DNA of 64,000 nucleotides from an uncultured delta proteobacterium (GCA_963771175.1 CAVYSY010000033.1:224001-288000), one strand, 5' to 3'. Positions 43,561-60,581 are shown, numbered from the stretch's first letter. A program made the numbers and translations. The notes: generated by a model not told the origin, from the sequence alone.

Positions 43561-43581
43561 GAAAGACTCCTTTCCCGGGAA

Positions 43582-43608
43582 TTATCGCGCGATCACCACC
43601 CGAGTTGC
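43582..43608 (-). promoter_or_regulatory. Sigma28-like promoter GCAA-N15-CGCGATAA
   Basis: Matches FliA consensus geometry TAAA-N15-GCCGATAA; same motif at 45060 and 60555. Confidence 0.7.
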
Positions 43609-43623
43609 GTGCTCGGACCCGAG

Positions 43624-43673
43624 AAAAGACAAGTCCCGGCCCCCAGGAACGGGGAACCGGGACAAGGGTGGCG
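43624..43673 (-). terminator. Intrinsic terminator after the TPR chaperone gene
   Basis: GTCCCGG...CCGGGAC stem followed by TTGTCTTTTC on the minus strand. Confidence 0.55.
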
Positions 43674-43699
43674 TACCGCGGCGCTCTCGCGCCCCGCCG

Positions 43700-44254
43700 T
43701 TACTTCTTGTTGGCCGTCTGGCCGGCCTGGGCCGCCTCGATGGTCTCGAGCGCCGCCGCCGCGAGCAGCCGGGCGCGCATGGACAGGGGATCCTTGCCCT
43801 GCGGGTCCATCTCCACGGCCTTCTTGAAGTCCTGCGCGGCCTCGAGAACCTTGCCCTGACGCAGGTAGACCTCACCGCGGTTCACGTAGGGAGCCAGGTC
43901 CTTGGGCTGCAGATTGATGGCGCGGTCGAAGTAGGCCTCGGCCTGGGCCAGGTCCTCCTCGGCCAGGTAGATGGCGCCGAGCGCGGTCAGGTAGTAGGGC
44001 TCGTTCGGGTCCAGCGTCACGAGACCGTCGAAGATGACCCGAGCCTCCTTGTACTTGCCGTTCTCGAACATCTGGAAGCCGTAGGTGGCCATCTCCAGCA
44101 TCTCGGGCGCGGTGACGTTCGTCAGCTCGGCCAGCGTCATGTGACCCTGGAGGTACTTCGTCACGCGCTCCTGCGAATACAGCACCTCGGCATACGCGGT
44201 GCTGCTCGCCTTGTCCTTCTTATCGTTGACCGCGGGCTTCGACTCGTTGGCCAT
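43700..44254 (-). CDS. SycD/LcrH-like TPR chaperone
   Basis: TLAEL, GFQMFENGKYKEARVIFDGLVTLDP, TPR pattern, T3SS context. Confidence 0.8.
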   Translation of the reverse strand: MANESKPAVNDKKDKASSTAYAEVLYSQERVTKYLQGHMTLAELTNVTAPEMLEMATYGFQMFENGKYKEARVIFDGLVTLDPNEPYYLTALGAIYLAEEDLAQAEAYFDRAINLQPKDLAPYVNRGEVYLRQGKVLEAAQDFKKAVEMDPQGKDPLSMRARLLAAAALETIEAAQAGQTANKK

Positions 44255-44435
44255 GTGTGCAGGTCCTTCTTGAGCTGGAACTGGCAGTGAGGAGATGGAC
44301 TGATATTTTTATCGTGGTTGGCCCAAACCTGTCCATGGGGGGTGGGAACTCCCCGCAGTCCGAGACCTCCCGCAATAGCAAGGGCGGGGCCCCGTATAGG
44401 AGCACCCGCCCCATTGACACCGCTCGGCGAACGAC

Positions 44436-45005
44436 CTAGCGGATGTTGCCGATGATGGACTTCTGCGTCTCACCGCGCATCTTGATGACGTTGCTGATCA
44501 TCTGGACCATCTCGGAGTAGTTCTGCAGCTCGTACTGGGCCTTGAGGCGGGCGGCGTCCTTCGGATCCAGGCCCTCGAGCGACTTCTGCTGGGTGGCCGA
44601 CAGGCCCTTGCCCGTCTGCGCCATGGAGATGGCGTTGTCCCAGATGCCGCCGCCGCTGGCCGCGGTGGTCACCGCGTTGTTGATGGCGCCCGTCTCGACA
44701 CCCGAGCGAGCCGGGATGCTCGGGGCCGGAGCCGCACCACCGGTCGCACCGCCCACGGGAGCGGGGGTGGAGGGCAGGCTGGTGCTCACGCCACCCTGGG
44801 TGGCGGACGGGGCGGGCAGACCGAGGGCCTTGGCGACCTGGTCCAGCAGGCTCTTCTTGGCCGCCTCGAAGCCGGACTTGAAGAAGTCGCCGATGACGTT
44901 CTTCAGCGCGTCCTTGACGCCGTTGAGAACCGTGCCGCCGATGCCGCCGCTGCCGAGGATCTTGCCGAGGTCAATCTTGGGAAGCTGAAAGCCGCCGATC
45001 TTCAT
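44436..45005 (-). CDS. Candidate T3SS substrate/filament subunit with SctF-like C-terminus
   Basis: C-terminus LQNYSEMVQMISNVIKMRGETQKSIIGNIR; Gly/Ala-rich body. Confidence 0.6.
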   Translation of the reverse strand: MKIGGFQLPKIDLGKILGSGGIGGTVLNGVKDALKNVIGDFFKSGFEAAKKSLLDQVAKALGLPAPSATQGGVSTSLPSTPAPVGGATGGAAPAPSIPARSGVETGAINNAVTTAASGGGIWDNAISMAQTGKGLSATQQKSLEGLDPKDAARLKAQYELQNYSEMVQMISNVIKMRGETQKSIIGNIR

Positions 45006-45059
45006 TTGGGTCTCTCCAGTCGAGGGGGCGGCGTCAGTGCCGCCCTGCTTACAAACAGA

Positions 45060-45086
45060 TTATCGCGGGAGCGCTCCGGGAGTTTC
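45060..45086 (-). promoter_or_regulatory. Sigma28-like promoter GAAA-N15-CGCGATAA
   Basis: Same -10 and spacing as the other two copies. Confidence 0.7.
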
Positions 45087-45109
45087 CTCCCCGATTTTCC
45101 CGCCTTTTC

Positions 45110-45589
45110 TCAGCGCCGGCCCAGCGACTCCAACATCGCGGAAGCCTTGGCGAAAACCGTCTCGTCGTCCTTGGCGAGCTGGGCGGCGCGGCGCAGATCC
45201 TCCACCGCCTGGGCCTTCTGGCCCATGGACAGCTTCACCTCGGCGCGACCCACGTAGGCGGCGGCGTCGCTGGCGGCCAGCTTGAGGGCCACGTCGTAGG
45301 CGGCCAGCGCGCCCTGCGGGTTGCCGGCGGCCATCTCCACCACGCCGAGCGCCTTGGCGAAGTAGGCGTCCGCGGGGTTGACGGCGTAGAGGCCCTGGAA
45401 GAGCGTGCGCGCCTCGTTCACCCGGCCCTGGTAGAAGAAGTAGTAGGCCGTCTTGGCGATGGCGTACAGCTCCTCGTCCGTGTAGCCGCGGACGTCGCGC
45501 AGCGTCGCCTTGCCGTCCGCCCACCGCTGCATGAGCGTGTCGAGCTTCGCCTCGTCCTGCTGGGGGTTGTTCGAGTCCGGTGCGGCCAT
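45110..45589 (-). CDS. SycD/LcrH-like TPR chaperone
   Basis: TLRDVRGYTDEELYAI...AYYFFYQGRVNEARTLF class II chaperone pattern. Confidence 0.85.
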   Translation of the reverse strand: MAAPDSNNPQQDEAKLDTLMQRWADGKATLRDVRGYTDEELYAIAKTAYYFFYQGRVNEARTLFQGLYAVNPADAYFAKALGVVEMAAGNPQGALAAYDVALKLAASDAAAYVGRAEVKLSMGQKAQAVEDLRRAAQLAKDDETVFAKASAMLESLGRR

Positions 45590-45593
45590 GGTG

Positions 45594-46071
45594 CTAGTAC
45601 CCCTCGTCCTGCTGCTCCTCGCGCATACGGCGCTGGATTTCCTGAATCTCCGCGTGGACCTGGCCCACCAGCGCCAGCATCTGCGCCTCGCGCTGCAGCA
45701 GGCCCTTCAGGCGCTCCATGCGCTCGGGCGGCGCGTTGATGCGCCCCAGGCTGCGCTCGAGCTGCTGGCGCTGCTCGCCATCCGCGCGCCCGGCCACGCT
45801 GCCCAGGTACGGCCGGTCCGAGAAGCCCTCGAGGTCCGCGTCATTGCCCCTTGGGCTGCGGAGGCGAGGGCAGGCGGACCTCCTCGGAGGAGTGCGCCGG
45901 GCCGATGAAGTCCAGCAGCGCCGCCGAGGCGAGCGCCGGGTTCTTCGGGTTGCCAACCTTGCGCTTCTTGCGATCGAGCTGGGAGGGATCGACCAGCTTC
46001 TCTCGGACCGCGCGGGGTCCCCCCCAGGGCCAGAGGGGTGCTCTCGGGGGCTGATTGTTGATTTTGGCCAT
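45594..46071 (-). CDS. T3SS-associated hypothetical protein, frameshifted near 45848
   Basis: MAKINNQ...PPQPKG continues as NDADLEGF...coiled-coil tail in the adjacent frame. Confidence 0.6.
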
Positions 46072-46121
46072 GGTCTGGACCGAACCTCACTCGATTTGGG
46101 GGCCTGGAGTCTACCCTACCC

Positions 46122-46400
46122 TCAGCGTTTGCCGCCTGCCTGCTCCTGCTGGAGGGCGAAGACGAAGTTGAGGACCTCGGCCACCGCGTCGTAGAGCTCC
46201 TCGGGGACCTCCTGGCCCACGTCGATGCGGTAGAGCGCGTTGGCCAGCGGCACGTTCCTCATGATGGGGATGTTGTACTGCTTGGCGATCTCCCGGATCT
46301 TCTCCGCCTTGAGGCGCATCCCCTTGGCCACCACGCGCGGGGCGGCGTCCTTGTCCTTGTCGTACTTGAGCGCGATCGCCATCTCGACATCGTCACTCAT
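46122..46400 (-). CDS. Stand-alone FlhB/SctU C-terminal-like protein
   Basis: AIALKYDKDKDAAPRVVAKG...PEELYDAVAEVLNFV. Confidence 0.9.
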   Translation of the reverse strand: MSDDVEMAIALKYDKDKDAAPRVVAKGMRLKAEKIREIAKQYNIPIMRNVPLANALYRIDVGQEVPEELYDAVAEVLNFVFALQQEQAGGKR

Positions 46401-46436
46401 GGGAACCTCGCGTCGGGGCGGTGGACAGGCGCGGCA

Positions 46437-47502
46437 TCAGGCGCGCGCCACGGGGGTGGGATTCTTCAGGCCGTAGACGAAGTTGAGCACCTCGGCGACG
46501 GCGTCGTAGAGCTCCTCGGGGATCTCCTGGCCCACCTCCACGCGCAGCAGCGCGTGCGCCAGGGGCACGTTGCGCAGCGTGGGCACGTCCGCGTCGCGCG
46601 CGAGCGCCTTGATGCGCTCGGCCTTGAAGTCCAGGCCCTTGGCCAGCACCCGCGGCGCCTCGTCCTTGTCCTTGTCGTACTTGAGCGCCACGGCCACGTG
46701 GTCGGGGTTGGTGACGATCACGTCGGCGTCCTTCACGGCCTCCATCTGCGCGCCCTCCAGGATCTCCTGGTGCATCTCCTTGCGCTTGGCCTTGTGGTGC
46801 GGGTCGCCTTCGCTCTCCTTGTATTCCTTCTTCACCTCGTCCTTCGTCATCATCATGTCCTTCATGTAGGACTTGCGCTGCCACCAGACGTCGAAGATGG
46901 CGAAGAGGAAGAAGACCATGCCCACGCGCACGGAGACGCGGTAGACCAGCTCGCCCATGATGGCCATCATGGTCGCGGTGTCTCGGCGCACCGTCTCCAC
47001 CACCAGGGGCATGGAGTCGCGCACCACTCCGAAGATGACGTAGGCGGCGATGGAGATCTTGATCAGGTTCTTGAGCAGCTCGACGAGCTGCTTCTTGCCG
47101 ACGAGGTTCTTCAGGCCCTCGAGCGGGTTGAGCTTCTCGAGCTTGGGCATCAGCGGATCCATCGTGAACAGCGAGCCCACCTGGAGGAAGTCCAGGAGAC
47201 CGCCGACGATGGCCACGGCCGCCACCACCGGGAGGGTGAGCATCACCACCGAGCTCAGCCCCATCAGCATGAGCTCGTAGGTGGCCTTCTCCAGATCCTC
47301 CGGGTGGGCGATGTGCGCGAAGCTGAAGTGGAAGAGCTCGGTGACCTGCTCCTCCAGATCGGGCCAGGTGGCCTTGACCACGCCCAGGCCGACGATGAAC
47401 CCGAACACGCCGGTCAGGTCCTTGCTCTTCCAGACCTGACCCTTCTTGCGTGAGTCGTCGAGCTTCTTTTGTGAGGGTTCTTCTGTCTTTCTCGTCGGAC
47501 AT
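46437..47502 (-). CDS. sctU: T3SS export switch SctU (FlhB family), frameshift near 47489
   Basis: MSDE/KTEEPSQKKL..RKKGQV, KESEGDP, cleavage loop TNPDH. Confidence 0.93.
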
Positions 47503-47518
47503 GGCGAGGAACCCCGGT

Positions 47519-48338
47519 TCAGCCGAGCAGGCGCACGGCGTCGCGCAACATGGCCAGCATGGCGGCGAACTCCGTCTGCAGCCGTCCCATGATGAGGCCG
47601 ATGGACATGAAGACGATGAGCACGCCCACCAGCGGCTTGATCGCCATGGAGATGAAGAAGACCTGGACCTGCGGGCGCCACGCGGTTGATGACGCCCAGC
47701 GCCAGGTCGGTCAGGAAGGCGGCCAGCGTGGCCGGCGCGGCGAGCGCGAGGGAGATCTTCAGCAGGTCCGCGAAGATGCGGATCATCAGGTCGAAGAAGG
47801 CCCAGGAGCCATGGCTGAAGCGCGGGAAGCCGTCCAGCGGGACGACCTCGAAGCTGTCGGCGAGCGCCTCGATGACCAGGTGGTGGCCGTTGAGCGTGAG
47901 GAAGAGCACCACCGCGAGCTGGACCTTGAGGCTGGAGAAGAGCGACACCTGCTGGCCGATCTGCGGCACGAAGAGCTGGGCCTTGTTGCTGCCCGACATG
48001 GTGTCCACGAGGGTGCCGGCCACGCGCGCCGCCTCGAAGACCACGTTCACGATGGTCGCCAGCGTCACCCCGATGAAGATCTCCTTGAGCATCAGCACGA
48101 TGTAGGGCAGCGCGCTGGTGGGGATGGCCCCCATGCGCGCGCTCACCGCCGGGAAGAGCACGATGGACAGCGTGACCCCCACGCCCATCTTCACCTCCGT
48201 GGGCACCACCTCGCCGCCGAGGAATGGCGAGAGCACCAGCACCGGCATGATCCGGCACATGAGCAGGCCCACGGTGAAGATGACGAGCGAGAGGTTGGCC
48301 TGCTCCGTCAGTCTGGTGAGGACATCGGAGACGTTCAT
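47519..48338 (-). CDS. sctT: T3SS export apparatus SctT (FliR family), frameshift near 47675
   Basis: KEIFIG, ARVAGTLVD, LNGHH, LGVINRVAP/QVQVFF. Confidence 0.92.
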
Positions 48339-48602
48339 CTGGCGATGAGAGCCGGGAACTGGTCGAAGACGTGGAAGGTGAAGCGCACAAGCTGATTGCC
48401 AATCCACGGACCGGTGAGCGCCAGCACCCCGAAGACGACGATGACCTTGGGAGCGAACGAGAGCGTCTGCTCCTGGATCTGCGTGGTGGCCTGGAAGACG
48501 GAGATGAGGAAGCCCACCAGGAGGCTCATCAGCACCGGCGGCGCCGAGGCGACGAGCACGAGGTAGAGCGCCTGCTGGAGTGATGAAGTTCAGCTGGTGC
48601 AT
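48335..48602 (-). CDS. sctS: T3SS export apparatus SctS (FliQ family), frameshift near 48580
   Basis: VGFLISVFQATTQIQEQTLSFAPK. Confidence 0.93.
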
Positions 48603-48610
48603 GTGCGCTC

Positions 48611-49431
48611 TCACAGGTAGCCGACGACCAGACCCTTGGCGATGAGGTACCAGCCGTCGACGAGGACGAAGAGCAGGAGCTTGAAGGGCATGGAGATGGT
48701 GGTCGGCGAGAGCATGTGCATGCCCAGCGCCAGCAGGATGTTGGCCACCACCATGTCGATGACGATGAAGGGCACGAAGAGCAGGAAGCCGATCTGGAAG
48801 GCCTCCTTGAGCTCGGAACCACGAAGGCCGGGACGATGATCATGAAGTCCCGGTCGGTGATGTCGCTGCGGTCCTCCTCGGCCCGCATCTTCTTGGCCAG
48901 GTTGAAGAAGAGCGCGCGGTCCTTGTTGGTGATCTTCTTGATCAGGAAGTCGCGCAGCGGCTCCTTGGACTTGTTGGCCGCCTCCAGCAGGGTGCCCACC
49001 GACTCCGAGGACAACAAGGCGGGGCCCTTGGCCAGGATGTCCACCTCCGAGGCCCGGTACATGGCCTGCCCCACCGGCGCCATGATGTAGACGGTGAGGA
49101 TGATGGCCAGGCCGGTGATCACCTGCGTGGGCGGAATCTGCTGGGTGCCCAGCGCCGAGCGCACGATGGAGAGCACCACGGAGATCTTCACGAAGCTCGT
49201 CACCATCATCAACACGAAGGGGACGAGCGACAGCGCGGCCAGCGCCAGCATCAGCACCAGCGGACGCGAGGCGAAGGAGTCGGGCGTCACCGACTCGGCG
49301 GCGACGGCCTCGGTGCCGGTGCCGCCGCCACGCTTGGCGGCGAGGGCGATGAAAGGATTCAACGCGATCGCCACGGCGAACAACCAGGGCGCGATGCGGA
49401 GGGTGGGGAGGCGAACGGTTGGCAATCTCAC
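48611..49431 (-). CDS. sctR: T3SS export apparatus SctR (FliP family), frameshift near 48815
   Basis: [50 protein letters not shown] [15 protein letters not shown]. Confidence 0.94.
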
Positions 49432-49442
49432 GGGTCGTCTCT

Positions 49443-50138
49443 TCAGGCGCTCGGCGGCTGGGTGCCGCTCGGCTGGGTAGCGCCCGATGGGGTGGCATCG
49501 CGCCGGGCGAGGAGCTTCTGGAGGAAAGGAGAAAGAGGAATCACGTTGGCGGGAGGGCGCTCGGAACGAATGCGCTCCACCGCCTCGGTATCGAGCTTCG
49601 ACAGCAGTTGCAGGCCACTCTCGCCACCGCCCACCAGCAGGTACTCACCCGCGGCCTTCAACACGAAAAGCGTGCGGCGCTGGTCCAGCGGCACCCGCTC
49701 CACCACCGATACCACCGAGGCCCGCCCCACCGGCACGCCCTGCAGCCCCATCAGTCTGCGCAGGCCCACGTTGAGCGTCAGGTAGATGCAGGCCACCACC
49801 GCGCCGAACAGCATCAGCGTACGCAGCAGCATCCAACTCAGGCTCTCGGGCTCCTCCTCCATGCCGGGCGGCAGGGAGGACCCCAGGGGCTCGTCCACGG
49901 AGGGCTGCGACGCCGTCGTGACCGGAGCGGGCGCGGCGGCCTTGTCCGCGGTGGCGTCCTTCGCAACGGGGGCCGGGGACTGTGGAGAGGGGGCCGCTTC
50001 AACGGCGGGAGACCGCACGACGGCGGACGCTGGCTGCGCGGGCGTTGCGGGAGCCTGGGCCCACGCCAACGGCGCGAGCAGCACGCACGCGCACGCCAGC
50101 ACGACCGGACGCAGGGATGAGACAAGAGACACTGCCAT
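49443..50138 (-). CDS. fliO: FliO-like protein
   Basis: Single TM then [26 protein letters not shown]; immediately upstream of sctR/fliP. Confidence 0.78.
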
Positions 50139-50294
50139 GGTGGGGCGCGAGGCTAGTGCATCGGGAAGGAGACCGCCACGGGCCTCCCCTCCCCTGCTCC
50201 GATCCTCCGCTCGCCTGCCTGGGTCAGCCCACCGCGGCACGCTCTGCTCTCCTCGTTCCAATGCCACGGCGGCTCCCACGGACGGGCGATGGGC

Positions 50295-51653
50295 CTAGCC
50301 CGCGAGAGAGATGATGCGAACGCCCAGGTGACCCTCGACTTCCACCAGCTCGCCCCGGGCCACCACCTTGCCATTCACCGAGAGGTCCACCGGCTCGCCC
50401 GGCGTCCGGTTCAGCTCGATGACCTGCCCCACGCGCATGGACACCACCTTATCCGCCGTCACCGGCACCCGGGCCAGCTCCACGGAGATCTGCAGCGGGA
50501 TGTCACCCAGCAGGTCGCCTGCATCCATTCTGTCGTCCACGGATCCACTCTCCGCCAAAGGGTTGCGCATCTCGGGGTTGGTGAACTCCTCCTGCTCCCC
50601 CGCTTCGCTCAGGGCCTCCGCCGCGGCCTCGTCCGACTCGGAGGGCACACGCCGCTGGAAGGACTGCTCCCCGAGCACCACCTCGGTGATTCGCGCCTGA
50701 TACTGACCGTTCTCGAGAAACACCTCCGAGTTCAGGCAGCCCACGCGTCCCAGCCCCAGGCGCAGCCGCGCGGTGCCCTCCTCGCCCCGGTCCGGCCGGG
50801 CCGAGAGAACGTCCACCAGCACCACGTCCTTCACCCGGAGGCTCGACAGGTCCTGGCTGGAGATCTCCGCGTAGCCGATCTCCGCCCGCAGCCAGGTGCG
50901 AGCCGAGGACAGGCGAGACAAGTGGGCCTGCGCGTCCGAGCGCAGCAGCGCCCGCCGATGCTCGGCCACCTGCGCCGGCTCCATCACCTCCAGCACGCCC
51001 GAGGGCACGAAGAGGCGCACCGTGCCCTCCTGGGAGCCGAGCTGGGCCCGGAACTGGACCACCAGCACCGGCCCATCCTCGCCCAGCCGCGCCGCCGCCT
51101 CATCCGCCCCGTGCGCCACTCCCTCCATGCGTAGCTTGGGCTGCCCCGGCTCCATCCCCGGCGCCAGCGCCTTGAGCGCCTCGAGGAGGACAAAGCCCAC
51201 CACACCTTCCTCGATGTCCGTCATGGGCCGCAGGCCGACCGTCTCCCCCGCGCCGCCCAGCAGCATGTCCACCACCGCGTGCGCCAGGGCCAGGTCCACC
51301 TCCAGCACCGCGCGCCCGCGATGCGGGCCGGGCACCAGGAAGGAGAGGAAGGAGGGCGCCGCCAGGTGCCGGCGCAGCTCGTTCGTTCCGAGGACCTGCA
51401 ACGCCTCCAACGTGAAGACGGGCTGCGCGTCGAAGATGGCCTTGAGCCGGGCGCACAGCGCCTCGATGGCCTCGGCCTTCGGCGTCAACCACTTCAGCCG
51501 ACCGGTGAGCCGGGACTCGGTGAGGGACACCTTCTCCAGCTTGTTGGCGAAGGAGAAGGGGCGCCACGGCTTCACCGAGCGCTTGAGCTGCCGGGTATCG
51601 ACCACCATGGTGCGCTCTTGTTCGCCGGGGCCATCGTCCATGTCGAGACTCAC
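50295..51653 (-). CDS. sctQ: C-ring protein SctQ (FliM/FliN family)
   Basis: C-terminal SPOA domain IPLQISVELAR...VNGKVVARGELVEVEGHLGVRI. Confidence 0.92.
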   Translation of the reverse strand: MSLDMDDGPGEQERTMVVDTRQLKRSVKPWRPFSFANKLEKVSLTESRLTGRLKWLTPKAEAIEALCARLKAIFDAQPVFTLEALQVLGTNELRRHLAAPSFLSFLVPGPHRGRAVLEVDLALAHAVVDMLLGGAGETVGLRPMTDIEEGVVGFVLLEALKALAPGMEPGQPKLRMEGVAHGADEAAARLGEDGPVLVVQFRAQLGSQEGTVRLFVPSGVLEVMEPAQVAEHRRALLRSDAQAHLSRLSSARTWLRAEIGYAEISSQDLSSLRVKDVVLVDVLSARPDRGEEGTARLRLGLGRVGCLNSEVFLENGQYQARITEVVLGEQSFQRRVPSESDEAAAEALSEAGEQEEFTNPEMRNPLAESGSVDDRMDAGDLLGDIPLQISVELARVPVTADKVVSMRVGQVIELNRTPGEPVDLSVNGKVVARGELVEVEGHLGVRIISLAG

Positions 51654-52609: not shown

Positions 52610-52639
52610 TGCGTCACACCGCCTGGGGGAACCCCGAGG

Positions 52640-53128
52640 TTACTTGCGCTGGCGCATCAGGAACAAGGTGTTCCCGATTTCCTCCTGGTTCAGCTCCTCC
52701 TTGGCCTGGCGCTCGGCCCGGAGTTGCTTCTGCCAGGTATCCTTGTGCTTCTCGATGGCCTTGAGCTCCTTGGCAGCCTCGGCCATCTCCCGCCGCCGCT
52801 GCTCCACCAGTCGCTCGGCGACCTTGACGGCCTCCTTCTGCCGCTCGATCTCCAGGGAGATCTGCGCCTCCTCGTCCTTGAGGCGCTCCTCGTAGCGGTT
52901 CATCATGGTGAGGCCGTTGACGCCGGCGCCCTTGGCCATGACCTGTTGGGAGTAGGCCAGCACCTTCTGCTTGCGCTCGGCCTTGCGCTTCTCGAGCTCC
53001 TGCTCGAGCCGCTTCTGCTCGGCCTTCTCCTTCTCCAGCGCCTTGACGGCGTTGGAGAAGGCCTGCTCGGCCTCCTCCTTCGCACGCTCGCGCATCTCGA
53101 GCAGGACCTGCAACCGGTAGGGGGGCAT
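52640..53128 (-). CDS. sctO: SctO/FliJ-like stalk protein
   Basis: YRLQVLLEMRER, coiled coil, directly after the ATPase. Confidence 0.82.
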   Translation of the reverse strand: MPPYRLQVLLEMRERAKEEAEQAFSNAVKALEKEKAEQKRLEQELEKRKAERKQKVLAYSQQVMAKGAGVNGLTMMNRYEERLKDEEAQISLEIERQKEAVKVAERLVEQRRREMAEAAKELKAIEKHKDTWQKQLRAERQAKEELNQEEIGNTLFLMRQRK

Positions 53129-53179
53129 GATGCCCGCATCCTAGCGCGGAAAGGCCCCGTCGCGTCACTCCCCGCGGCG

Positions 53180-54493
53180 TCAGTCCGCGAAGAGGCCGAT
53201 GAGCTGCTCGACGGTCTCCTCGAAGCCACTGTTGGAGTGGGTATCCTGCTTGAGGAAGTCGATGATGGAGTCGTACTTGTCGATGGCGTAGTCCGTCCGG
53301 GGGTCCGTCCCGTACTGGTAGGCGCCCAGGAGGATGAGGTCGCGCTGCTTCTCGTACGTGGAGAGCGTCTCGCGCAGCTTGCCGGCCGCCTTCTTGTGCT
53401 CCTTGGAAACGATGCCGCTCATCACACGGGAGAGGCTGGCCAGCACGTCCATGGCGGGCCACTGGTTGCGCTCGCCCAGGGCACGGTTGAGGATGAAGTG
53501 GCCGTCGAGAATACCGCGGACCTCGTCGGCGATGGGCTCTTCCATGTCACCGCCGGCCACGAGGCAGGTGTAGATGGCGGTGCACTTGCCCTTGTCCGAG
53601 TTGCCCGTGCGCTCGAGGATGCGCGGCAGCATGGAGAACACGCTCGGCGGATAGCCTTGGCGCGCCGGGGGTTCACCGATGGCGAGGCCGATCTCACGCT
53701 GGGCGCGGGCCAGACGCGTCACCGTGTCGAGCATGAAGAGCACGTTGCCGCCACGCTCGCGGAAGTACTCGGCGATGGCCGTGGCCACGTAGGCGGCGCG
53801 CAGACGCACGAGGCTCGGCTGGTCCGAGGTGGCGCACACCAGCACGGAGCGCTTCATGCCCTCCTCGCCCATGGCGTCCTCGATGAACTCGCGAACCTCG
53901 CGACCACGCTCGCCGATCAGCGCCACCACGCACAGATCCGCCTTGGTGTTGCGGGCGATCTGCCCCATCAGCGTGGACTTGCCGACGCCCGAGCCGGCGA
54001 AGAGGCCCACGCGCTGGCCCTCTCCCACGGTGAGCAGCCCGTCGATGCAGCGCACCCCGAGCGGCAGCGGGCGTTCGATGCGCTGGCGCTTGAACGGGTC
54101 CGGGCAGTCCCGGTCCACCGACCAATCGATCAGGCCCCCGGGCAGCGGACTGCCGTCCATGGGCTCGCCAATGCCATTGAGCACGCGGCCCAGCAGCCCT
54201 TCCCCGCACTTGATGGAGAGGGGCCTGCCCGTGGGGATGACCTCGCTGTCCGGGCCGATGCCGTACAGCTCACCCAGGGGCATGAGCATCACCTCGTCGC
54301 CCTGGAAGCCCACCACCTCGGCCTTCACGGAGCTGCGGCTGCCATGGCCCTTGATGACGACCAACTCGCCCACCCGCACGCCAGGCACGCTCGCCTTGAT
54401 GACGAGACCCGTCAGCTCGGTGACGCGGCCCCGCACCCGGTACAGCGGCGCTTCCTTGATCAGCGAGTAGTAGCGCGAGAGATCGATGGCCAT
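53180..54493 (-). CDS. sctN: T3SS ATPase SctN (FliI/YscN family)
   Basis: GQRVGLFAGSGVGKST, ALIGERGREVREF, GEPPARQGYPPS, ILDGH. Confidence 0.97.
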   Translation of the reverse strand: MAIDLSRYYSLIKEAPLYRVRGRVTELTGLVIKASVPGVRVGELVVIKGHGSRSSVKAEVVGFQGDEVMLMPLGELYGIGPDSEVIPTGRPLSIKCGEGLLGRVLNGIGEPMDGSPLPGGLIDWSVDRDCPDPFKRQRIERPLPLGVRCIDGLLTVGEGQRVGLFAGSGVGKSTLMGQIARNTKADLCVVALIGERGREVREFIEDAMGEEGMKRSVLVCATSDQPSLVRLRAAYVATAIAEYFRERGGNVLFMLDTVTRLARAQREIGLAIGEPPARQGYPPSVFSMLPRILERTGNSDKGKCTAIYTCLVAGGDMEEPIADEVRGILDGHFILNRALGERNQWPAMDVLASLSRVMSGIVSKEHKKAAGKLRETLSTYEKQRDLILLGAYQYGTDPRTDYAIDKYDSIIDFLKQDTHSNSGFEETVEQLIGLFAD

Positions 54494-54495
54494 GG

Positions 54496-55170
54496 CTACG
54501 GAGGACCCTCCTTCTTGCCCTGATCCGGGAACAGCACGTTCTGCAGCATCTCGAACTGGGTGGGGAGCTGCGCGTCCACCGTGCCGAACTCCGTCTGCAC
54601 GATGCAGCCCACCGGGGCCACGTCCGGATCCTCGCGGATGGCCACGTCCACCGCCCGGCCGATGAGCTCCATCAGCTCCGACTTGCGAGCGCGCAGCACC
54701 GCCGCCGACTTGGGATTCACCCGGAGCACCACCGCCCGGGCGTTGCGCAGCTCCTCGATGGCCTTGGCGCAGATGTCCACCAGCAGCGTCGGGTCTCGCT
54801 CCACGTCGCGGCCGATGATCTTCTCGGAGATCTTGCACGCCAGGGCGACCACGTCCTGCTCCTGCCGGGCCAGGATGTCCCCGGCCTGCATCTTCGCGCG
54901 GAGGATGATCTCCGTGGCCTGGGCCATGCCCTCCTGCTTGCCTTGCTCGCGGGCCTTGGCCAGCACGTCCTCGCGCTCCTTCTGGGCCTCCGCGAGGATG
55001 CGCTCCTTCTCCCTCTGCGCCTCCTCGATGATGCCCTGGGCCGTCTGCCGAGCATCGAAGACCTCGGCGTTCATCACGCCCGCGCGCGGAGGTGGACGCA
55101 ATGCCGGCCGTTCCCCGCCGGACGGCGAATCGGTCGCCGAATCGCCCTTGATCACCTTGCCGATCGCCAT
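54496..55170 (-). CDS. sctL: Stator SctL (FliH family)
   Basis: AREQGKQEG, LRVNP, GCIVQTEFGTVDA. Confidence 0.9.
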   Translation of the reverse strand: MAIGKVIKGDSATDSPSGGERPALRPPPRAGVMNAEVFDARQTAQGIIEEAQREKERILAEAQKEREDVLAKAREQGKQEGMAQATEIILRAKMQAGDILARQEQDVVALACKISEKIIGRDVERDPTLLVDICAKAIEELRNARAVVLRVNPKSAAVLRARKSELMELIGRAVDVAIREDPDVAPVGCIVQTEFGTVDAQLPTQFEMLQNVLFPDQGKKEGPP

Positions 55171-55194
55171 CGAAGACTCCTTGTCAGCGGGATG

Positions 55195-56763
55195 CTAGCG
55201 CGTTCCGCCCCGCGGTCCACGCCCACTCGTACCCTGTTCGCCCGGCCGAGAGCGTCGCTGGACCCTCGTCCCCTCCTCCTTCACCGCCGGCAGGGAGGTG
55301 CTGGTGCCCACCACCCGTGGAGGGCGCTCGGATTCCACCTCGGGCTCGACACGGGGCGCGGCGCTCCGGCTGTGCGTGCGCGCTACCGGGGAGCGAAAGA
55401 CGCGCGAGCCCTCCGCCTCCGGGACAACCGGCTCTTCGACACGAGACCGGGTGGGGCCCCGGGTGGGTGCCGGCCCAATCCGGACCCCGGTGGGATCCCT
55501 CGCCATCGCCATGGATGGCTCCTGCCGATCCTTCCGGGGGGTCACCCGACTCACCCGCGAGGAGTCCGCCGCATCTTCCTGCGAACGTCCCGCGTAGCTC
55601 GGGCCGACGGCCCCCGCCCGGCGAGCCTCGCGCTCGGCGATGGGATCCCTCCGCACGCCCACCACCGACTGGGAGGACATGGAGCGCCGGACCGAGGGCT
55701 CCGAGCTGGCACCCGCGCGCATCTCCCGCGATAGGGACGGACCGCGCGCCGGGGGAGGCGCCGCCGGCCTGGCGACGGCTGGAGGAGGAGGACCAAGAGA
55801 GGGCGGACGCGCCGGGGTGACCCGGACCGGGCGCTCGATGAGGCCTCGGGCCGCGAGCCGCTCCAGGTCCGAGACGATGTCCGTACGGCCACCGTCGCCG
55901 CGGCTCGTCGGCTTGGCGCGCTCCTCGCGCACCCACTTCGCGAGGGTCTGCCCGAACTCGCCGCGATGCTTCTCCAGCAGACGTGCCGCGAACTCGGGGG
56001 ACTGGATCACGCTCGCACGCGCCAGCCGGTGCACTCCGGCCCCCCGAATGGTGGCGGCCAGGCTCTGCAAGCCACCGTACTGCTCGAGCTGCGCCTTGGC
56101 GTCCTCCTCGGCGAGCTTTCGCGGCGCATTGGCGGACACGGACCGCGTGGCGAGCTGGCGCAGGTGCGGCGGCAGTGCCGCGAAGGCCGGCTCCCGCTCC
56201 GCCTCGGGCAGGCCCGCCAGCGCCGGCCCCAGCACGCGCGCCCCCAGCCGATCGCACACGGTGAGCAGCTCGCGCGTCTGCAGCACCAGCACGTCGGGGA
56301 ACTTGAAGGGGACATGCGGCGCGGACTCGCGCGAGAGCAGCTCCTCCAGCGTCCAGCGCACGATGTCCAGCACCTGGGGCCGGACGTCGCGCGTGAACTT
56401 CACCCGCCCCGTGGAGGGCAGGTGGGAGCGCACCGCGTCCGCCAGCGGCGCCGGCAGCGCACGCAGCACCACCTCCACGACAGCCAGGCGCTCGCGCTTG
56501 AGCAGGCCCGCCAGACGCTCCGGATCCGCGCTCCACAACTGCCCACGCCGATCCCTCACCAGCCGCTTGATCTCCTGGACCAGCAGCGGGATGCGCTTCT
56601 CGCGCGGAATCTGGGAGATCTCCTGAGCCCGGTGCTGGAGCAGCTCCGCCTCATCCTCGGGCAGGTGCTCCAGCGCGCTGATGCCCTCCTGACCACCGAA
56701 GGTAATGGCGGTCAGCAGCATCATCGTCTGTCGCTTGCTCAGCGAGGTGAAGAACTGGTCCAA
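55195..56763 (-). CDS. FliG/SctK-like protein with long disordered C-terminus
   Basis: Position between sctJ and sctL; helical N-terminal half with FKFPDVLVL..REL resembling FliG; Pro/Arg-rich tail. Confidence 0.55.
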   Translation of the reverse strand: MDQFFTSLSKRQTMMLLTAITFGGQEGISALEHLPEDEAELLQHRAQEISQIPREKRIPLLVQEIKRLVRDRRGQLWSADPERLAGLLKRERLAVVEVVLRALPAPLADAVRSHLPSTGRVKFTRDVRPQVLDIVRWTLEELLSRESAPHVPFKFPDVLVLQTRELLTVCDRLGARVLGPALAGLPEAEREPAFAALPPHLRQLATRSVSANAPRKLAEEDAKAQLEQYGGLQSLAATIRGAGVHRLARASVIQSPEFAARLLEKHRGEFGQTLAKWVREERAKPTSRGDGGRTDIVSDLERLAARGLIERPVRVTPARPPSLGPPPPAVARPAAPPPARGPSLSREMRAGASSEPSVRRSMSSQSVVGVRRDPIAEREARRAGAVGPSYAGRSQEDAADSSRVSRVTPRKDRQEPSMAMARDPTGVRIGPAPTRGPTRSRVEEPVVPEAEGSRVFRSPVARTHSRSAAPRVEPEVESERPPRVVGTSTSLPAVKEEGTRVQRRSRPGEQGTSGRGPRGGTR

Positions 56764-56804
56764 CGGTCACCCCGCGGGAGAGAGACGTTCCAGAAAAACG
56801 ACGG

Positions 56805-57599
56805 TCACTGCTTGGAGCGGGCCCGCGCCGTAGCGGCGCCACCACCACCGCCGCGCATCAGAGACCACGCCGACAGGCCGATGGCGGCCAGGATGATCAG
56901 CACGGACACGCCAGCCATCATGCGGAACTGGCCCACGCTGGCCGCCGTCATGCGCATGCCCATGACGTCCTGCAGGCGGCTCTCCGCGCTCACCTCCGCG
57001 TCGGTGGCGACCGCGGCCGTCAGCAGCACCGTGACCGCTTCCGGCTTCAGCTCCGGCACGGCGGTGGAGACGAACTTCCGCACGTCATCGGGCTGGATGG
57101 GCGGCTGGTTCTTCGGGCCGGGCCGGTACTTGACGAACACCGACGACGAGGGCATCGGCTTGTTCTCCGGCTGGGTGAGGTCGTTGTTCTCCGGGATCAT
57201 CACGATGACCCGGGCCTCCAGCACGCCGTCGATCTGGTTCAGTGCGTTGGACACCTCACCACCGAGCGCCTTGAGCATCATGGCGCGCTCCTCGGTGGCG
57301 GTGGGCACCATGCCGCCCTTGGCGAAGTGGTTCAGCCCCTTCTCCATCGGGCGCGGCAGCGAGTACGCCCGCAACAACTCCGCAGCCTGAGCGGCGTCCG
57401 CCTTGGGGACCACGATGCGGAAGCGGACCTCGTTTCCGCCCTCTTCCTTCATCTTGGTGGCGGCGATGCCGTTCTTGCTGAGCAGGACGTAGATCTCATT
57501 GGCGTCCTGCTCGGTGAGATCGTGCTGCAGGTCGATGGAGCAGCCAGTCCCCAGCACGAGGGCGAGGAGGGCGGCGAGCGCGTACGGTCGGAGCGTCAT
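56805..57599 (-). CDS. sctJ: Inner-membrane ring lipoprotein SctJ
   Basis: Lipobox LGTGC; LTEQDANEI..LL, IDGVLEARV, SSSVFVKY, C-terminal TM. Confidence 0.94.
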   Translation of the reverse strand: MTLRPYALAALLALVLGTGCSIDLQHDLTEQDANEIYVLLSKNGIAATKMKEEGGNEVRFRIVVPKADAAQAAELLRAYSLPRPMEKGLNHFAKGGMVPTATEERAMMLKALGGEVSNALNQIDGVLEARVIVMIPENNDLTQPENKPMPSSSVFVKYRPGPKNQPPIQPDDVRKFVSTAVPELKPEAVTVLLTAAVATDAEVSAESRLQDVMGMRMTAASVGQFRMMAGVSVLIILAAIGLSAWSLMRGGGGGAATARARSKQ

Positions 57600-57734: not shown

Positions 57735-58268
57735 CTACACCTGGGTCTTCAGGGTGTCCTTGAGGCCGCTGGTGGCCTTCTCGACCACCTTGCTCGTCAG
57801 ATCCAGCTCCTGGGTGTACTTGTACATACCCGCCTGGAGCGAGATCAGCTCGGCGTTGGAGAAGCTCTTCCCCGAGGCGCCGGCCTTGATGAGCTTCTCC
57901 ATGTTGAGCTGGCCCTTCTCCAGCTCGCTGACGACGTGCGAGAGCATGCCGCCGCTCTTGCTCGCCTCCTGCTTGCCGGTGACGGCCTCGGCGCCGCGCG
58001 CGGTGGCGGGCTCCTGGCCAGCGGTGTTCACCTTGTTGAGCGCCGCCTTCTCCGTCTTGTTGACGGCCTCGGTCTGACGCACCTGCTCGGCGCGCTGGGT
58101 GGCCTGAGCCGCCTGAGCCGCCTGGGCCTGCTCCGGCCCCTGAGCCTTGTTAGCGAGGGCCGCGTCGAACTTCGAGGCCCCCTGCTTGTTGACCTGCTGC
58201 GCGCCCTGATCCTGCACCTTCTGCTGGGCGACCTGAGCTGCCGAGACGCCGGCCATCGGACCCGCCAT
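57735..58268 (-). CDS. Inner rod SctI-like protein
   Basis: C-terminus ELISLQAGMYKYTQELDLTSKVVEKATSGLKDTLKTQ fits the YscI/HrpB2 pattern; directly upstream of sctJ. Confidence 0.65.
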   Translation of the reverse strand: MAGPMAGVSAAQVAQQKVQDQGAQQVNKQGASKFDAALANKAQGPEQAQAAQAAQATQRAEQVRQTEAVNKTEKAALNKVNTAGQEPATARGAEAVTGKQEASKSGGMLSHVVSELEKGQLNMEKLIKAGASGKSFSNAELISLQAGMYKYTQELDLTSKVVEKATSGLKDTLKTQV

Positions 58269-58980
58269 GTGACTGCCTCCTTGAATCCACAGGGGAGGAA
58301 GACTCCTCCTCGTTCAACAGTTCCTTGAGCCGTTCGATCGCCCGCGCATGCAGGCGAGACGCCCAGCTCTTCGACTGCCCGATCTCCGCCCCCGCCTCTT
58401 CCAGCGTCTTGCCCTGGAAGTAGTAGCCCTGCAGAAGCCGGCGCTCCTTCTCCGGCAACTTCTCGATGGCTGCCCTCACCCTCACCCGCTGCTGCTCGAG
58501 CTCCAGCCGTTGATCCACCGGCAGGGACTCGTCCGAGAAACCCAGCGAGTCTGCACCTTCGAGGCTGGTCGCGAACACCATCGCCAGTCCCGCCACCGCG
58601 TTGGAGATGTCCATTACATCATCGTCAATGGACCCCCCGCGGTTGCCTCCTCCCTGCTCGCGATCCGAAAGATTTCCCAGATACGCGGAGGCCCGCTCAC
58701 TCATGTAGGAGGAGCGCGCATCGCCCCCCTTGAGCACTCCCATCTTGCGCAGGCCATCGTAGATGGCGCCCTTGATGCGGTAGTGGGCAAAGGTGAGGAA
58801 GTTGGCTCCTACCTTGGGATCAAAGCGATCGGCCGCCTCCAGGAGGCCAATCTGGCCGTAGGCGATGAGCTCGTCGAGCTCGAGCTGGGCGGAGAACTGC
58901 CTGCGCACGGTCGCCGCCAGCGACCGCACGTAGGGGCCGTACTTCTCCAGGAGAACCTTCTTGTCTTCGCCGAGCCCCAA
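58150..58980 (-). CDS. fliA: FliA/WhiG-family (sigma28) RNA polymerase sigma factor
   Basis: DELIAYGQIGLLEAADRFDP, TFAHYRIKGAIYDGLR, LPEKER..YY..TLEEAG..SWASRLH. Confidence 0.85.
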   Translation of the reverse strand: MGLGEDKKVLLEKYGPYVRSLAATVRRQFSAQLELDELIAYGQIGLLEAADRFDPKVGANFLTFAHYRIKGAIYDGLRKMGVLKGGDARSSYMSERASAYLGNLSDREQGGGNRGGSIDDDVMDISNAVAGLAMVFATSLEGADSLGFSDESLPVDQRLELEQQRVRVRAAIEKLPEKERRLLQGYYFQGKTLEEAGAEIGQSKSWASRLHARAIERLKELLNEEESSSPVDSRRQSHGGSDGRRLGSSGRPAEGAGSGRAAGQQAGGLEVRRGPR

Positions 58981-58987
58981 GCGCCGC

Positions 58988-59398
58988 TCACTCAGCCTTC
59001 GACCACAACCGCTCGAGGGCCTGATTCAAACGGGGATCATCCTGCAGGGCGTCGGCGATCTTGCTGGTCAAGGCCGACGACTTCATCCGCAGCTTCTCCT
59101 TGAGCACCTCGGAGACGAGCTTGCGCGTCGCCTCGTCCTTGCTCTTGAAGTCCCCGTTCTTCAGTTGTTTGGCGATGGCAAGCGCCTGGGAGGTGATGGG
59201 ATCCGTGGCCTGGGGCCCCTGCACGTTGCTGGAGCCCACCGCACCGGAGGGACCTACCAGGCCCGCGGAGCGATCCACCGTGCCACCAAAAGTCGCAGCC
59301 CCTGCCTTGCCGGCTGACGCCTTGCCGGCGGGCCCCTTGGCGCCCCCGGCACGTCCCTTTCCGCCGCCTCGTCCGACTCCACCGACCGACATCGGCAT
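58988..59398 (-). CDS. Small protein, candidate FlgM-like anti-sigma factor
   Basis: Disordered N-terminus; AIAKQLKNGDFK and SKIADAL resemble the FlgM C-terminus; 7 nt upstream of fliA. Confidence 0.45.
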   Translation of the reverse strand: MPMSVGGVGRGGGKGRAGGAKGPAGKASAGKAGAATFGGTVDRSAGLVGPSGAVGSSNVQGPQATDPITSQALAIAKQLKNGDFKSKDEATRKLVSEVLKEKLRMKSSALTSKIADALQDDPRLNQALERLWSKAE

Positions 59399-59417
59399 GA
59401 CCTCCTGTCAATGCATT

Positions 59418-59855
59418 CTACTTCTTCGCGGTGGCTGGAGGCAGAGCCCCCGCCTCCTTCGCCTCGAGGAGCGCCTTGGCCAGGCGAGCCCCGTCACCCT
59501 CGGGCTCCAGGTCCATGGCGGCCTTCAACTCCTTCAGGGCCTCCGGCACCTTACCCATGAACAGCAGGGCCTCGCCCGCGTGTGCCCGCGGCAGAGCGGA
59601 GTTGGGAGCGAGCCGCTGGGCCGCCCGGTAGGACTGCAGCGCCTTGTCGTGACGACCCTGGGCGAACTCGAGCGAACCGAGCGCCAGTTGCGGCACCTCG
59701 CTCTTGGGCATCAGCACCGCGGCCCCGGCGAAGACTTCACGCGCCTTCTCGAACTGGCCCATGTCGAGCCACAGATAGCCCGCCTCGAGGAGGATCATCG
59801 CCTCACGCCGAGCGAGGGGAACGAGGCTGCCCGAGATCTCCGAAGTCTCCGCCAT
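59418..59855 (-). CDS. TPR chaperone-like protein
   Basis: GYLWLDMGQFEKAREVF and three TPR-like helix pairs. Confidence 0.78.
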   Translation of the reverse strand: MAETSEISGSLVPLARREAMILLEAGYLWLDMGQFEKAREVFAGAAVLMPKSEVPQLALGSLEFAQGRHDKALQSYRAAQRLAPNSALPRAHAGEALLFMGKVPEALKELKAAMDLEPEGDGARLAKALLEAKEAGALPPATAKK

Positions 59856-59949
59856 GTGTCGTCCGCTTCCTTTTCTGGTCCGGGAAGGCCCGGAGGGAGC
59901 AACCGCGTCCCCCCGAGCCCCGGACCCCTGAGACCGCCAGCGACAAGCG

Positions 59950-60486
59950 CTAGCGGATGTTGCCGATCGCGTTCTTCGACGTATCGTGCCGCGTCTTCAG
60001 CACGTTGGAAATGGTGCTGAACACCTGGTTCTCCTTCTGCATGGAGATCTGCACGCCCAGGAGCTTCTTCTGCTCGGAGAACATGCTCTGCATCTCTCCG
60101 TTGAACTCGCCGCCCACGTTGCTGTTACCGCCCACGTTGACGGAGCCGGTGCCGCCGGTGCTGCCACCCGGGATGCCACCGCCGGAGCCCACCGTGGTGT
60201 TCGCGGGCACGCCGCCCGAGGACAGGGCCGCGCCGACGTAGGGGGCCGAGCCGGAGCCGCTCGAGTTGCTGAAAGTGGTCAGCGAGGACACCGCGGCGGA
60301 CACCACGGAGCCACCGGGCACCAGGTTGGCCGCCATGCCCACGCCACCAGCCACCACGTTGGCCGCGGTGCCAACACCCGACTGCACGCGAGCCGAGAAG
60401 CTCGTGTCCGGGGTCGCCCGGGCCGTCGTCATGTTGGTGGACATCCGGGGCATGTTCAGCGAGCTGTCGATTCCCTTCACACTCAT
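59950..60486 (-). CDS. Candidate T3SS substrate/filament subunit with SctF-like C-terminus
   Basis: C-terminus LLGVQISMQKENQVFSTISNVLKTRHDTSKNAIGNIR. Confidence 0.62.
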   Translation of the reverse strand: MSVKGIDSSLNMPRMSTNMTTARATPDTSFSARVQSGVGTAANVVAGGVGMAANLVPGGSVVSAAVSSLTTFSNSSGSGSAPYVGAALSSGGVPANTTVGSGGGIPGGSTGGTGSVNVGGNSNVGGEFNGEMQSMFSEQKKLLGVQISMQKENQVFSTISNVLKTRHDTSKNAIGNIR

Positions 60487-60554
60487 GGTTCTTCTCCAGG
60501 CAATGGAACGACCAGGTTCAGAGCCCCGTGGGGTCCGGCGCTCTCACTCCTGCA

Positions 60555-60581
60555 TTATCGGTGATCGCCCGACGCAGTTGC
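60555..60581 (-). promoter_or_regulatory. Sigma28-like promoter GCAA-N15-ACCGATAA
   Basis: Near-consensus -10 and exact 15-nt spacer; shares ACGCAACT with the 43582 copy. Confidence 0.75.

Follow-up and report, generated by a model that had tools for sequence, protein, structure and literature searches.

A FliA-related sigma factor, its candidate promoter motif, and needle-like genes in a myxobacterial nonflagellar type III secretion locus

We analyzed a 64-kb stretch of DNA (the window) from an uncultured delta proteobacterium (GCA_963771175.1, CAVYSY010000033.1:224001-288000), which carries on its minus strand a gene cluster for a secretion system of type III (T3SS) with a sigma factor gene of its own. 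An earlier reading made from the sequence alone (the sequence-only reading) had placed three matching sigma28-type promoters within this cluster and proposed that they define a "late" regulon of the encoded sigma. Coordinates are those of the window, domains were called with Pfam and NCBIfam, and G000 denotes the genome to which the window belongs (9.8 Mb, 81.66% complete). The claim that the system is nonflagellar was borne out: SctV and SctN exceeded the NCBIfam cutoffs, and SctI, J, L, O, P, Q, R, S, T, and U, a FliO-like protein, and three TPR chaperones were also recognized. Neither flagellin (Flagellin_N) nor FlgM had a match in G000, at the completeness given above. The features of the cluster are listed below; aa stands for amino acids and ORF for open reading frame.

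60957..60986, minus strand: SigA-type promoter-like element TTGAAC-N18-TACCGT, seen by eye, likely the basal operon promoter
60624..60896, minus strand: 90-aa helical protein without a family match, kept before P1 in the sigma loci; the label SctE-like co-chaperone comes from position only
60554..60581, minus strand: promoter motif P1, GCAAC-N16-CGATAAT
59950..60486, minus strand: SctF-like protein 1, 178 aa, with a long N-terminal extension and a needle-like C-terminal 40 aa; MXAN_2434 ortholog family
59418..59855, minus strand: TPR protein, putative SctG/CdsG-like needle chaperone (CdsG, E=9.7e-5; SctY, E=1.8e-5; both below the NCBIfam cutoff)
58988..59392, minus strand: 134-aa predicted sigma-binding partner with a disordered Gly-rich N terminus and three C-terminal helices; candidate secreted anti-sigma
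58150..58980, minus strand: FliA-related sigma, with sigma domains in residues 1-225; the tail of the ORF overlaps sctI
57735..58268, minus strand: SctI inner-rod-like protein (Pfam T3SS_basalb_I, E=0.0022); no exact motif site precedes sctI in the window
46122..57599, minus strand: sctJ, sctK-like, sctL, sctN, sctO, sctP (FliK-like), sctQ, fliO-like, sctR, sctS, sctT, sctU, and an FlhB C-terminal-like gene (Pfam, NCBIfam)
45110..46071, minus strand: 158-aa gene (frameshifted) and LcrH/SycD-family TPR chaperone (TIGR02552, 111 bits; cutoff, 104.8)
45059..45086, minus strand: promoter motif P2, GAAAC-N16-CGATAAT, also found before three more copies of the downstream gene on contigs C28 and C31
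44436..45005, minus strand: SctF-like protein 2, 189 aa, with four near-identical copies in G000 and 72-76-aa tandem forms in relatives
43700..44254, minus strand: LcrH/SycD-like TPR chaperone (TIGR02552, 85.6 bits, below the cutoff)
43633..43663, minus strand: intrinsic-terminator-like hairpin just before P3 (12-pair stem, T tail)
43581..43608, minus strand: promoter motif P3, GCAAC-N16-CGATAAT; an exact site also precedes the intact ortholog in G011 and similar genes in G041, G042, and G138
43109..43560, minus strand: candidate secreted protein of ~150 aa, split into 84+66 aa here and a single 153-aa ORF in G011
40903..43029, minus strand: SctV export gate (TIGR01399, 820.9 bits; cutoff, 692)

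The labels SctE, SctG, and SctK were assigned from position and weak matches. Four genes (sctR, sctT, the 158-aa gene, and the MSVSGIGG gene after P3) are frameshifted in this assembly and intact in relatives; the frameshifts are most likely assembly errors. The first gene after P1 falls in the MXAN_2434 family (MXAN_2434 clusters with the ortholog in genome G138), and sctQ lies eleven places after the first gene by gene count in G138. This position agrees with MXAN_2445, which is sctQ in the T3SS* of Myxococcus xanthus (PMC10196010). The supplement of that paper was searched for six MXAN numbers, and none was found. On these two grounds, the family of the first gene and the matching sctQ count, the cluster is by sequence orthologous to the M. 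xanthus T3SS* (MXAN_2434-2464), the "long" Myxo NF-T3SS, and its sigma would by gene count be MXAN_2437. The closest named sigma loci were those of Archangium and Cystobacter.

The three minus-strand motifs described by the sequence-only reading are present where it had placed them, with a spacer of 15 nucleotides (nt) when framed as 4-nt and 8-nt boxes; its 27-nt spans stop at CGATAA, and the last T lies one base further on (43581, 45059, and 60554). Apart from P1 to P3, the window contains no exact match to G[CA]AAC-N16/17-CGATAA (3 versus 0.01 expected in 300 third-order Markov simulations); an additional one-mismatch site lies within the sigma gene, and start codons lie 68, 54, and 21 nt downstream of P1, P2, and P3, respectively. 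That reading had quoted the FliA consensus, but the -35 box is really G[CA]AAC(T), and exact TAAA-N15-GCCGATAA occurred 0 times in G000. It had also let the three sites define the regulon, whereas the motif is found genome-wide in G000. Counts of the motif in this genome were 15 at N16 and 6 at N17, with 0 to 2 at every other spacing from 10 to 24; a relaxed -10 box gave 22 (N16) and 7 (N17) matches versus 0 to 4 at other spacings; and a weight matrix built from 85 training sites in other genomes gave 19 matches of >21 bits at spacings 16-17, versus 2 over 11 other spacings combined. The relaxed pattern CGAYAA was discarded, with many chance matches within genes (43 and 40 versus 18 and 16 in controls). 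For 22 of 25 motif-led genes, the start lay 27 to 80 nt downstream of the site. G[CA]AAC-N16/17-CGATAAT is a genome-wide candidate promoter signal, and the regulon built on it would comprise some 20 to 25 sites across G000. The small ORFs with substrate-like N termini that had been placed after each site stood in part: the 178- and 189-aa ORFs do end in needle-like (SctF) sequence, but the MSVSGIGG ORF is only the first half of the frameshift-split gene.

One check named by the sequence-only reading, the presence of the motif in orthologous upstream regions, was run, and P1 was kept in 72 of 72 loci (62 exact and 10 with one mismatch; 0 of 72 in control stretches), these being the ones among 80 sigma loci with sufficient DNA before sctF1. 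In 15 of 79 loci, the 260 nt ahead of sctI also contained an exact motif; a site with at most one mismatch preceded the 134-aa gene in 6 of 77. Among 41 genomes including G000, the sigma was found in 27, and 26 of those had 2 to 28 CGATAAT-type sites; G021 has the sigma and 0 such sites, and its P1 ends in CGATAAC. G007, a genome 73% complete, had 11 sites with the sigma undetected. Seven genomes with a canonical FliA and no cluster sigma had 0 to 1 sites each, for which reason canonical FliA was rejected as the reader of the motif. A phylum survey of 151 genomes, which are in part related and thus non-independent, so that no P value is given for co-occurrence, showed a motif excess (at least 4 sites more than in the reversed control) in 74 of the 90 genomes with the sigma versus 7 of the 61 without it. 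Within the window's family, 37 sigma-positive genomes had 4 to 23 sites, and the 7 negative ones had 0, 1, 0, 0, 5, 0, and 0. When five of the seven sigma-negative exceptions were reexamined (all except G085 and G119), SctF1 homologs turned up in four of them. In G077 the sigma is fragmented, G045 gave a more distant match to the sigma, and in G159 no match was obtained for either the sigma or SctF1.

Five genomes of distant Myxococcota (G047, G068, G099, G114, and G116) had 50 to 82 motif sites, so much larger regulons. The small genomes of family f18 (1.3-3.4 Mb; 40% GC in locus L174) have the sigma, mostly without a motif excess, and their promoter may have drifted. In one of them, G078 (L174, G078:C1:1024700-1026400), the SctF-like, partner, and sigma genes are still together.

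The description of the sigma as FliA-like holds in that the protein is closest to FliA/WhiG, but its TIGR02479 score (108.1 bits) is below the cutoff of 189.6. The best structure match was Escherichia coli FliA (6PMI, E=1.3e-20), and the protein is not of the extracytoplasmic function (ECF) sigma group, its best matches being FliA/WhiG models and structures. In a 33-row tree, the 20 cluster sigmas grouped together (97/96), and the 10 canonical myxobacterial FliAs formed a separate group (99/98); because long branches come together at its root, no order of events is claimed from this tree. Region 2.4 of sigma factors reads the -10 box, and region 4.2 reads the -35 box. The region 2.4 pattern R-[IV]-x-G-[AS]-x-x-D-x-L-R is common to the cluster sigma and to E. 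coli and myxobacterial FliA and is absent from three RpoD/RpoH-like outgroups, whereas region 4.2 carries SKSW-x-x-R-x-H in 20 of 20 cluster sigmas, and 9 of the 10 canonical FliAs have S-E-x-R-[VI]-x-Q there instead. A FliA-like region 2.4 together with an altered, conserved region 4.2 matches the kept CGATAA -10 box and the new G[CA]AAC -35 box. Very probably, the sigma of the cluster is what reads G[CA]AAC-N16/17-CGATAAT, as judged from these residues and from conservation and co-occurrence.

The 134-aa gene lies directly before the sigma gene in 77 of 80 loci (the remaining 3 lack upstream DNA) and also in 4 of 6 distant-family loci, where the disordered N terminus is kept; its record in M. 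xanthus DK1622 is ABF90353.1. Residues 4-61 had a predicted local distance difference test (pLDDT) value of <50, that is, they are disordered. When residues 55-134 were modeled together with the sigma, the predicted complex scored 0.85 versus 0.18 for the best of 3 controls, with a contact agreement of at least 94% and a partner pLDDT of at least 83; the mark used is attained by 116 of the 157 solved complexes and by 2 of the 215 mismatched pairs. On the sigma side, the predicted interface lies mostly in residues 116-137 and 153-167, and regions 2 and 4 contribute fewer contacts. One UniRef record (P0067) names a homolog of the partner "anti-sigma-28 FlgM C-terminal domain," which is an automatic name. 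A profile search found no PDB relative, ESM Atlas gave unnamed Myxococcota clusters only, and the fold search gave generic helical matches only, with FlgM not listed, which does not exclude FlgM. The partner is predicted to bind the sigma and is likely, on the modeled complex, to be an anti-sigma; that it is released from the sigma by secretion is an argument by analogy in which we place as much doubt as belief.

SctF-like protein 2, which starts with MKIGG, matched Pfam T3SS_needle_F (PF09392) at E=3.3e-5 (24.4 bits, below the cutoff of 29.4) and TIGR02105 at E=3.9e-4 (20.8 bits, below the cutoff of 41.7), and MXAN_2434 matched the needle family at E=0.019. Of 40 members of the SctF-like protein 1 family, 12 matched T3SS_needle_F (E<=0.1). 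Two separate profiles both matched the same PDB chain best, 7Y6C_F (E=0.0013 for the SctF1 family and E=0.00088 for the other); the listed name of 7Y6C is needle co-chaperone, and we take its chain F to be the needle fragment. An ESM Atlas search with one of the 72-76-aa copies gave 30 matches, 25 of which carry PF09392 (member share of 13-32% in the top clusters). The four copies of SctF-like protein 2 in G000 each have the motif, and tandem 72-76-aa genes stand at the same place in relatives: six in G001 and four in G042, all with a site; seven in G004, six with a site; and two copies in G041 and G138, with a one-mismatch site only. DK1622 has two 74-aa SctF-like records, ABF86581.1 and ABF91074.1. 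A phmmer search of PDB with one 72-aa copy found no needle match. Fold searches added no support: Foldseek with the 72-aa protein gave zero matches at E<=0.001, and the model of this protein (all helix, pLDDT of 76.6) gave generic helical matches only and placed the Shigella T3SS chain 6RWY_L at rank 5 (Z of 7.3, root mean square deviation of 3.8, 70 residues aligned), tied with unrelated hairpins. On the profile matches, the small motif-led proteins very probably belong to the SctF family.

From the LcrH gene to sctV, genomes differ markedly in the content of the cassette, with 1 to 7 tandem needle-like copies of several sequence types (L139:4997-10175; L140:6532-9196), sometimes inverted or broken up by unrelated genes. 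G030 and G036, which have no cluster sigma (L168:1055-2556, L169:622-2135), encode a 350-360-aa protein with an SctF-like end helix and a chaperone-like neighbor and have no motif upstream. In relatives, a 350-390-aa DUF1521 protein and its own LcrH-like chaperone follow a motif site (L140:9776-11399; L137:7560-9274), and the pair is found in G000 at C8:16777-18229 with a one-mismatch site; the DUF1521 protein is a candidate tip, translocator, or filament protein. A short T3SS locus in G000 (C32:170670-179328) opens with an SctF-like gene (120 aa from the first Met), with sctV frameshifted, and the 11.5 kb scanned there had zero motif sites with up to one mismatch allowed.

Extra genome hits had been put forward as effector candidates, and motif-led genes with hydrolase domains and without signal peptides were indeed found. 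The scan covered 20 ORFs of G000, namely, 19 of the 25 relaxed-motif-led ORFs (the other six were repeat copies or window genes) plus one from the matrix scan, and 10 of these had Pfam matches, which included an amidase with peptidoglycan-binding domains, LysM with GH19, a peptidoglycan-binding domain, SH3, patatin, and M4 and C39 peptidases. Ten of 24 motif-led ORFs from G138, G041, and G042 also had Pfam matches, and the domains in relatives include S8, M4-propeptide, C39, and M91 peptidases, an alpha/beta hydrolase, endonuclease I, and LysM with a VgrG3-like muramidase. A hydrophobic N-terminal stretch was present in 2 of 21 motif-led proteins of G000 and 0 of 18 of G138 versus 31.5% of 6702 background proteins; the G138 set remained after 12 of 30 fetched matches were dropped (inside genes or without an ORF), 3 further matches being without a locus. 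Eight of these 18 have a homolog in the motif-led set of G000, two of them by a single shared domain. A DGFE-like stretch, [DS][GSATV]F[ED], follows the disordered N terminus in 11 of 21 motif-led proteins of G000 versus 144 of 6794 background proteins, a motif defined on the very proteins counted and kept as a lead only; it is a possible chaperone or export signal. T3SS*-driven prey lysis is marked by local peptidoglycan degradation, as reported in a passage of PMC12428579. We consider it somewhat likely, from domain content and promoter sites, that the dispersed hydrolases are T3SS* cargo. A Gly-rich amphipathic protein of 152 aa without a Pfam match is present in two motif-led copies at G000:C24:33831-35479, and similar proteins follow sites in G138.

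The order of the 90-aa gene, P1, sctF1, the TPR gene, the 134-aa gene, the sigma gene, and sctI onward is conserved. By eye and with no tally, the SigA-type element was recognized ahead of the 90-aa gene in many orthologs (55 upstream regions inspected); a TATAAT-type scan missed it. A scan for T-tail hairpins found no minus-strand terminator between P1 and sctQ; it gave 9 terminator-like sites versus 7.7 in shuffles, so that the hairpin before P3 is weak on its own. RNA-library contigs of one relative (four studies) span sctE to sctI with both P1 boxes unchanged, although such contigs reveal neither a start nor a single transcript and are weak evidence. In injectisomes, needle and inner-rod subunits are early substrates. 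The proposal of a "late" regulon thus stands in that the targets resemble secreted proteins and a predicted anti-sigma adjoins the sigma, but P1 lies upstream of the sigma gene and of sctI-J-K-L-N-O-P-Q, with no terminator found between them on the minus strand. Of the flagellar-style hierarchy, the predicted partner would give a checkpoint, but the set is not purely "late," the predicted regulon extends across the genome, and the -35 box is a new one. The position of P1 inside the sigma/basal-body operon, behind a SigA-type promoter, suggests positive feedback, the simplest layout being basal expression with sigma-driven amplification of the sigma's own operon. Genome-wide Cappable-seq results for M. 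xanthus are deposited as ArrayExpress E-MTAB-11042 (PMC8844925).

Two further features of the neighborhood are the FliO-like gene and the stand-alone FlhB C-terminal-like gene (46122-46400, 49443-50279), flagellar features retained by the cluster. At 38725-39846, on the plus strand, lies a protein with two FHA domains and a YscD cytoplasmic-domain match; together with a TPR lipoprotein, it faces the 3' end of the cluster in several genomes.

In order to put these results into perspective, the system was compared with known ones. The flagellar fliA and flgM operons have dual basal and sigma-dependent promoters, to which the layout of the T3SS* operon can be likened. With the FliA/FlgM pair, the present system shares the closest sigma family, the -10 box, region 2.4, a small partner with a disordered N terminus, and a sigma that would drive filament-type subunits; it differs in that no flagellin or FlgM was found, in the new -35 box and region 4.2, in the dispersed hydrolases of the predicted regulon, in a partner only weakly FlgM-like by profile, and in a sigma clade of its own, found side by side with canonical FliA in G018, G022, and G027. 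Sigma control of injectisomes is already known from HrpL and BtrS/BtrA. HrpL of plant pathogens is an ECF sigma, and its hrp box marks dispersed effector genes; the T3SS* sigma is likewise cluster encoded, with a promoter box usable to list effectors, but its targets would act on bacterial prey. In Bordetella, the T3SS-linked sigma BtrS has a T3SS-secreted antagonist, BtrA (BspR), which couples expression to secretion (PMC10732220, in part); however, BtrS is an ECF sigma, while the one described here is FliA related, and the likeness to BtrA is one of description. Chlamydia sigma28, a FliA-family sigma in an organism with an injectisome and no flagellum, has a regulon of two genes, hctB and tsp, and an anti-sigma not identified in the passage concerned (PMC10597470); unlike it, the sigma here sits in a T3SS operon, and its predicted regulon is secretion related.

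The likeness to the M. xanthus T3SS* extends to an orthologous locus, the gene order, and a cluster without a secretin. In passages of PMC10433427, PMC12075869, PMC12428579, and PMC3459982, the T3SS* is described as lacking a needle (SctF), secretin, and translocon, as needed for prey lysis, and as having unknown effectors, and none of these passages names a sigma; SctF is related to flagellin according to PMC3459982 (section 9). The present analysis extends the published T3SS* by SctF-like genes, a sigma, and a predicted anti-sigma and regulon. A literature search with most subscription papers outside its reach found no full-text paper on this sigma, motif, partner, or set of SctF-like genes, and no occurrence of MXAN_2437; the FliA-related T3SS* sigma and the elements associated with it were accordingly not found described.

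Together, these results make it reasonably likely that the T3SS* sigma reads a motif placed before SctF-like and hydrolase genes, which would be substrates, and that the 134-aa partner holds the sigma inactive until the finished apparatus exports it. The SigA-type promoter would provide basal expression of sctE-sctF1-sctG-anti-sigma-sigma-sctIJKLNOPQ, the partner is predicted to bind the sigma, and secretion may then remove the partner, as its disordered substrate-like N terminus and the analogy with FlgM and BtrA suggest. The free sigma, as conservation and co-occurrence indicate, would fire P1, amplifying its own operon, along with the ~20 to 25 genomic sites, and products without signal peptides would leave through the T3SS*, the SctF-like proteins forming a needle or filament and the cell-wall, lipid, and protein hydrolases contributing to prey lysis. 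What the sequences themselves establish in this account is the motif with its conservation, its joint occurrence with the sigma, the order of the genes, and their domains. Several results weigh against this account. The best SctF scores with hidden Markov models are all below the curated cutoffs, as is the TIGR02479 score of the sigma, and single-sequence Pfam/NCBIfam scans of the 72-77-aa forms gave no needle match; the cluster has no secretin, all secretin matches in G000 lying outside the window. Sixteen of the 90 sigma-positive genomes were without a motif excess (10 of the 16 in one small-genome family), 7 of the 61 sigma-negative ones had one, the surveyed genomes are non-independent, and it is the entire cluster, not the sigma alone, that co-occurs with the motif. 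The complex test can also be passed by neighboring genes that do not encode anti-sigmas, Pfam FlgM (PF04316) was absent among 25 of the 26 families listed for 41 partner members, and the profile match to 5 myxobacterial FlgMs was weak (hhalign probability of 6.4%, E=0.0058). Among the candidate cargo, three motif-led genes of G000 encode lipoprotein-like N termini (GH25/M23, nuclease-phosphatase, and ceramidase), and the DGFE-like motif was found in 4 of 18 proteins in the held-out G138 and in 1 of 10 among nonhomologs.

The same facts can be arranged otherwise. The sigma could read the motif with no secretion checkpoint at all, the partner being a stable partner, a co-activator, or an ordinary substrate and an outside signal activating the sigma as with HrpL; P1 upstream of basal-body genes, sctV after P3, the missing clear FlgM homology, and an interface mainly away from regions 2 and 4 would all fit, yet we regard this as unlikely in view of the substrate-like N terminus kept in distant families, the automatic FlgM name of P0067, and the partner's own motif site in 6 of 77 loci, just as flgM has a FliA promoter. 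A strict version of the sequence-only reading, in which the three sites mark late secreted subunits only and the basal-body genes are sigma independent, draws on the fact that every conserved site immediately precedes a gene with a substrate-like product (SctF-like, SctI, partner, and DUF1521 protein) and that genes for membrane components have no such site immediately ahead of them; stable hairpins after sctF1 and sctI could damp read-through, and the SigA-type promoter could supply the basal genes. It seems improbable, however, with no T-tail terminator found on the minus strand from P1 to sctQ, needle and rod being early injectisome substrates, and the contigs of the relative (weakly) spanning sctE to sctI. 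Co-occurrence cannot tell the sigma from other cluster genes, and G159, G085, and G119 have some excess with the sigma undetected, which leaves room for another factor that travels with the T3SS* and reads the motif while the sigma has other targets. We give this very little credence: two boxes 16-17 nt apart with starts mostly 27-80 nt on are what a promoter of the sigma-70 family looks like, CGATAA is the -10 box of FliA, region 2.4 resembles that of FliA, and of the five reexamined exceptions, four carry SctF1 homologs, the sigma being fragmented in one exception and matched more distantly in another.

Under the preferred reading, in which the cluster's sigma is held by a secreted partner, a broader scenario can be put forward tentatively, with somewhat more doubt than belief: the earliest-branching nonflagellar T3SS may have kept the flagellar sigma28/anti-sigma checkpoint and re-aimed it at a new -35 box, and across Myxococcota, this checkpoint would switch on an SctF-paralog needle and dispersed lytic effectors. 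If true, the T3SS* would not be needle-less, as reviews to 2025 call it in the passages concerned, where its effectors are given as unknown even though it is required for prey lysis, and the promoter box could be used directly to search for the effectors by which predatory myxobacteria kill and lyse prey. In M. xanthus DK1622, this names MXAN_2434 and the two 74-aa proteins as needle-like candidates, the MXAN_2436-2437 pair (numbers by count) as candidate anti-sigma and sigma, and, for the cargo, candidates that are orthologs of motif-led genes, MXAN_2037 and MXAN_2380 among them. The finding also bears on the flagellum-to-injectisome scenario, in which a loss of SctF in the Myxo systems is assumed, and suggests that a regulatory checkpoint was inherited together with the export apparatus. 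Two open questions about the T3SS*, its needle and its effectors, would thereby become directly testable.

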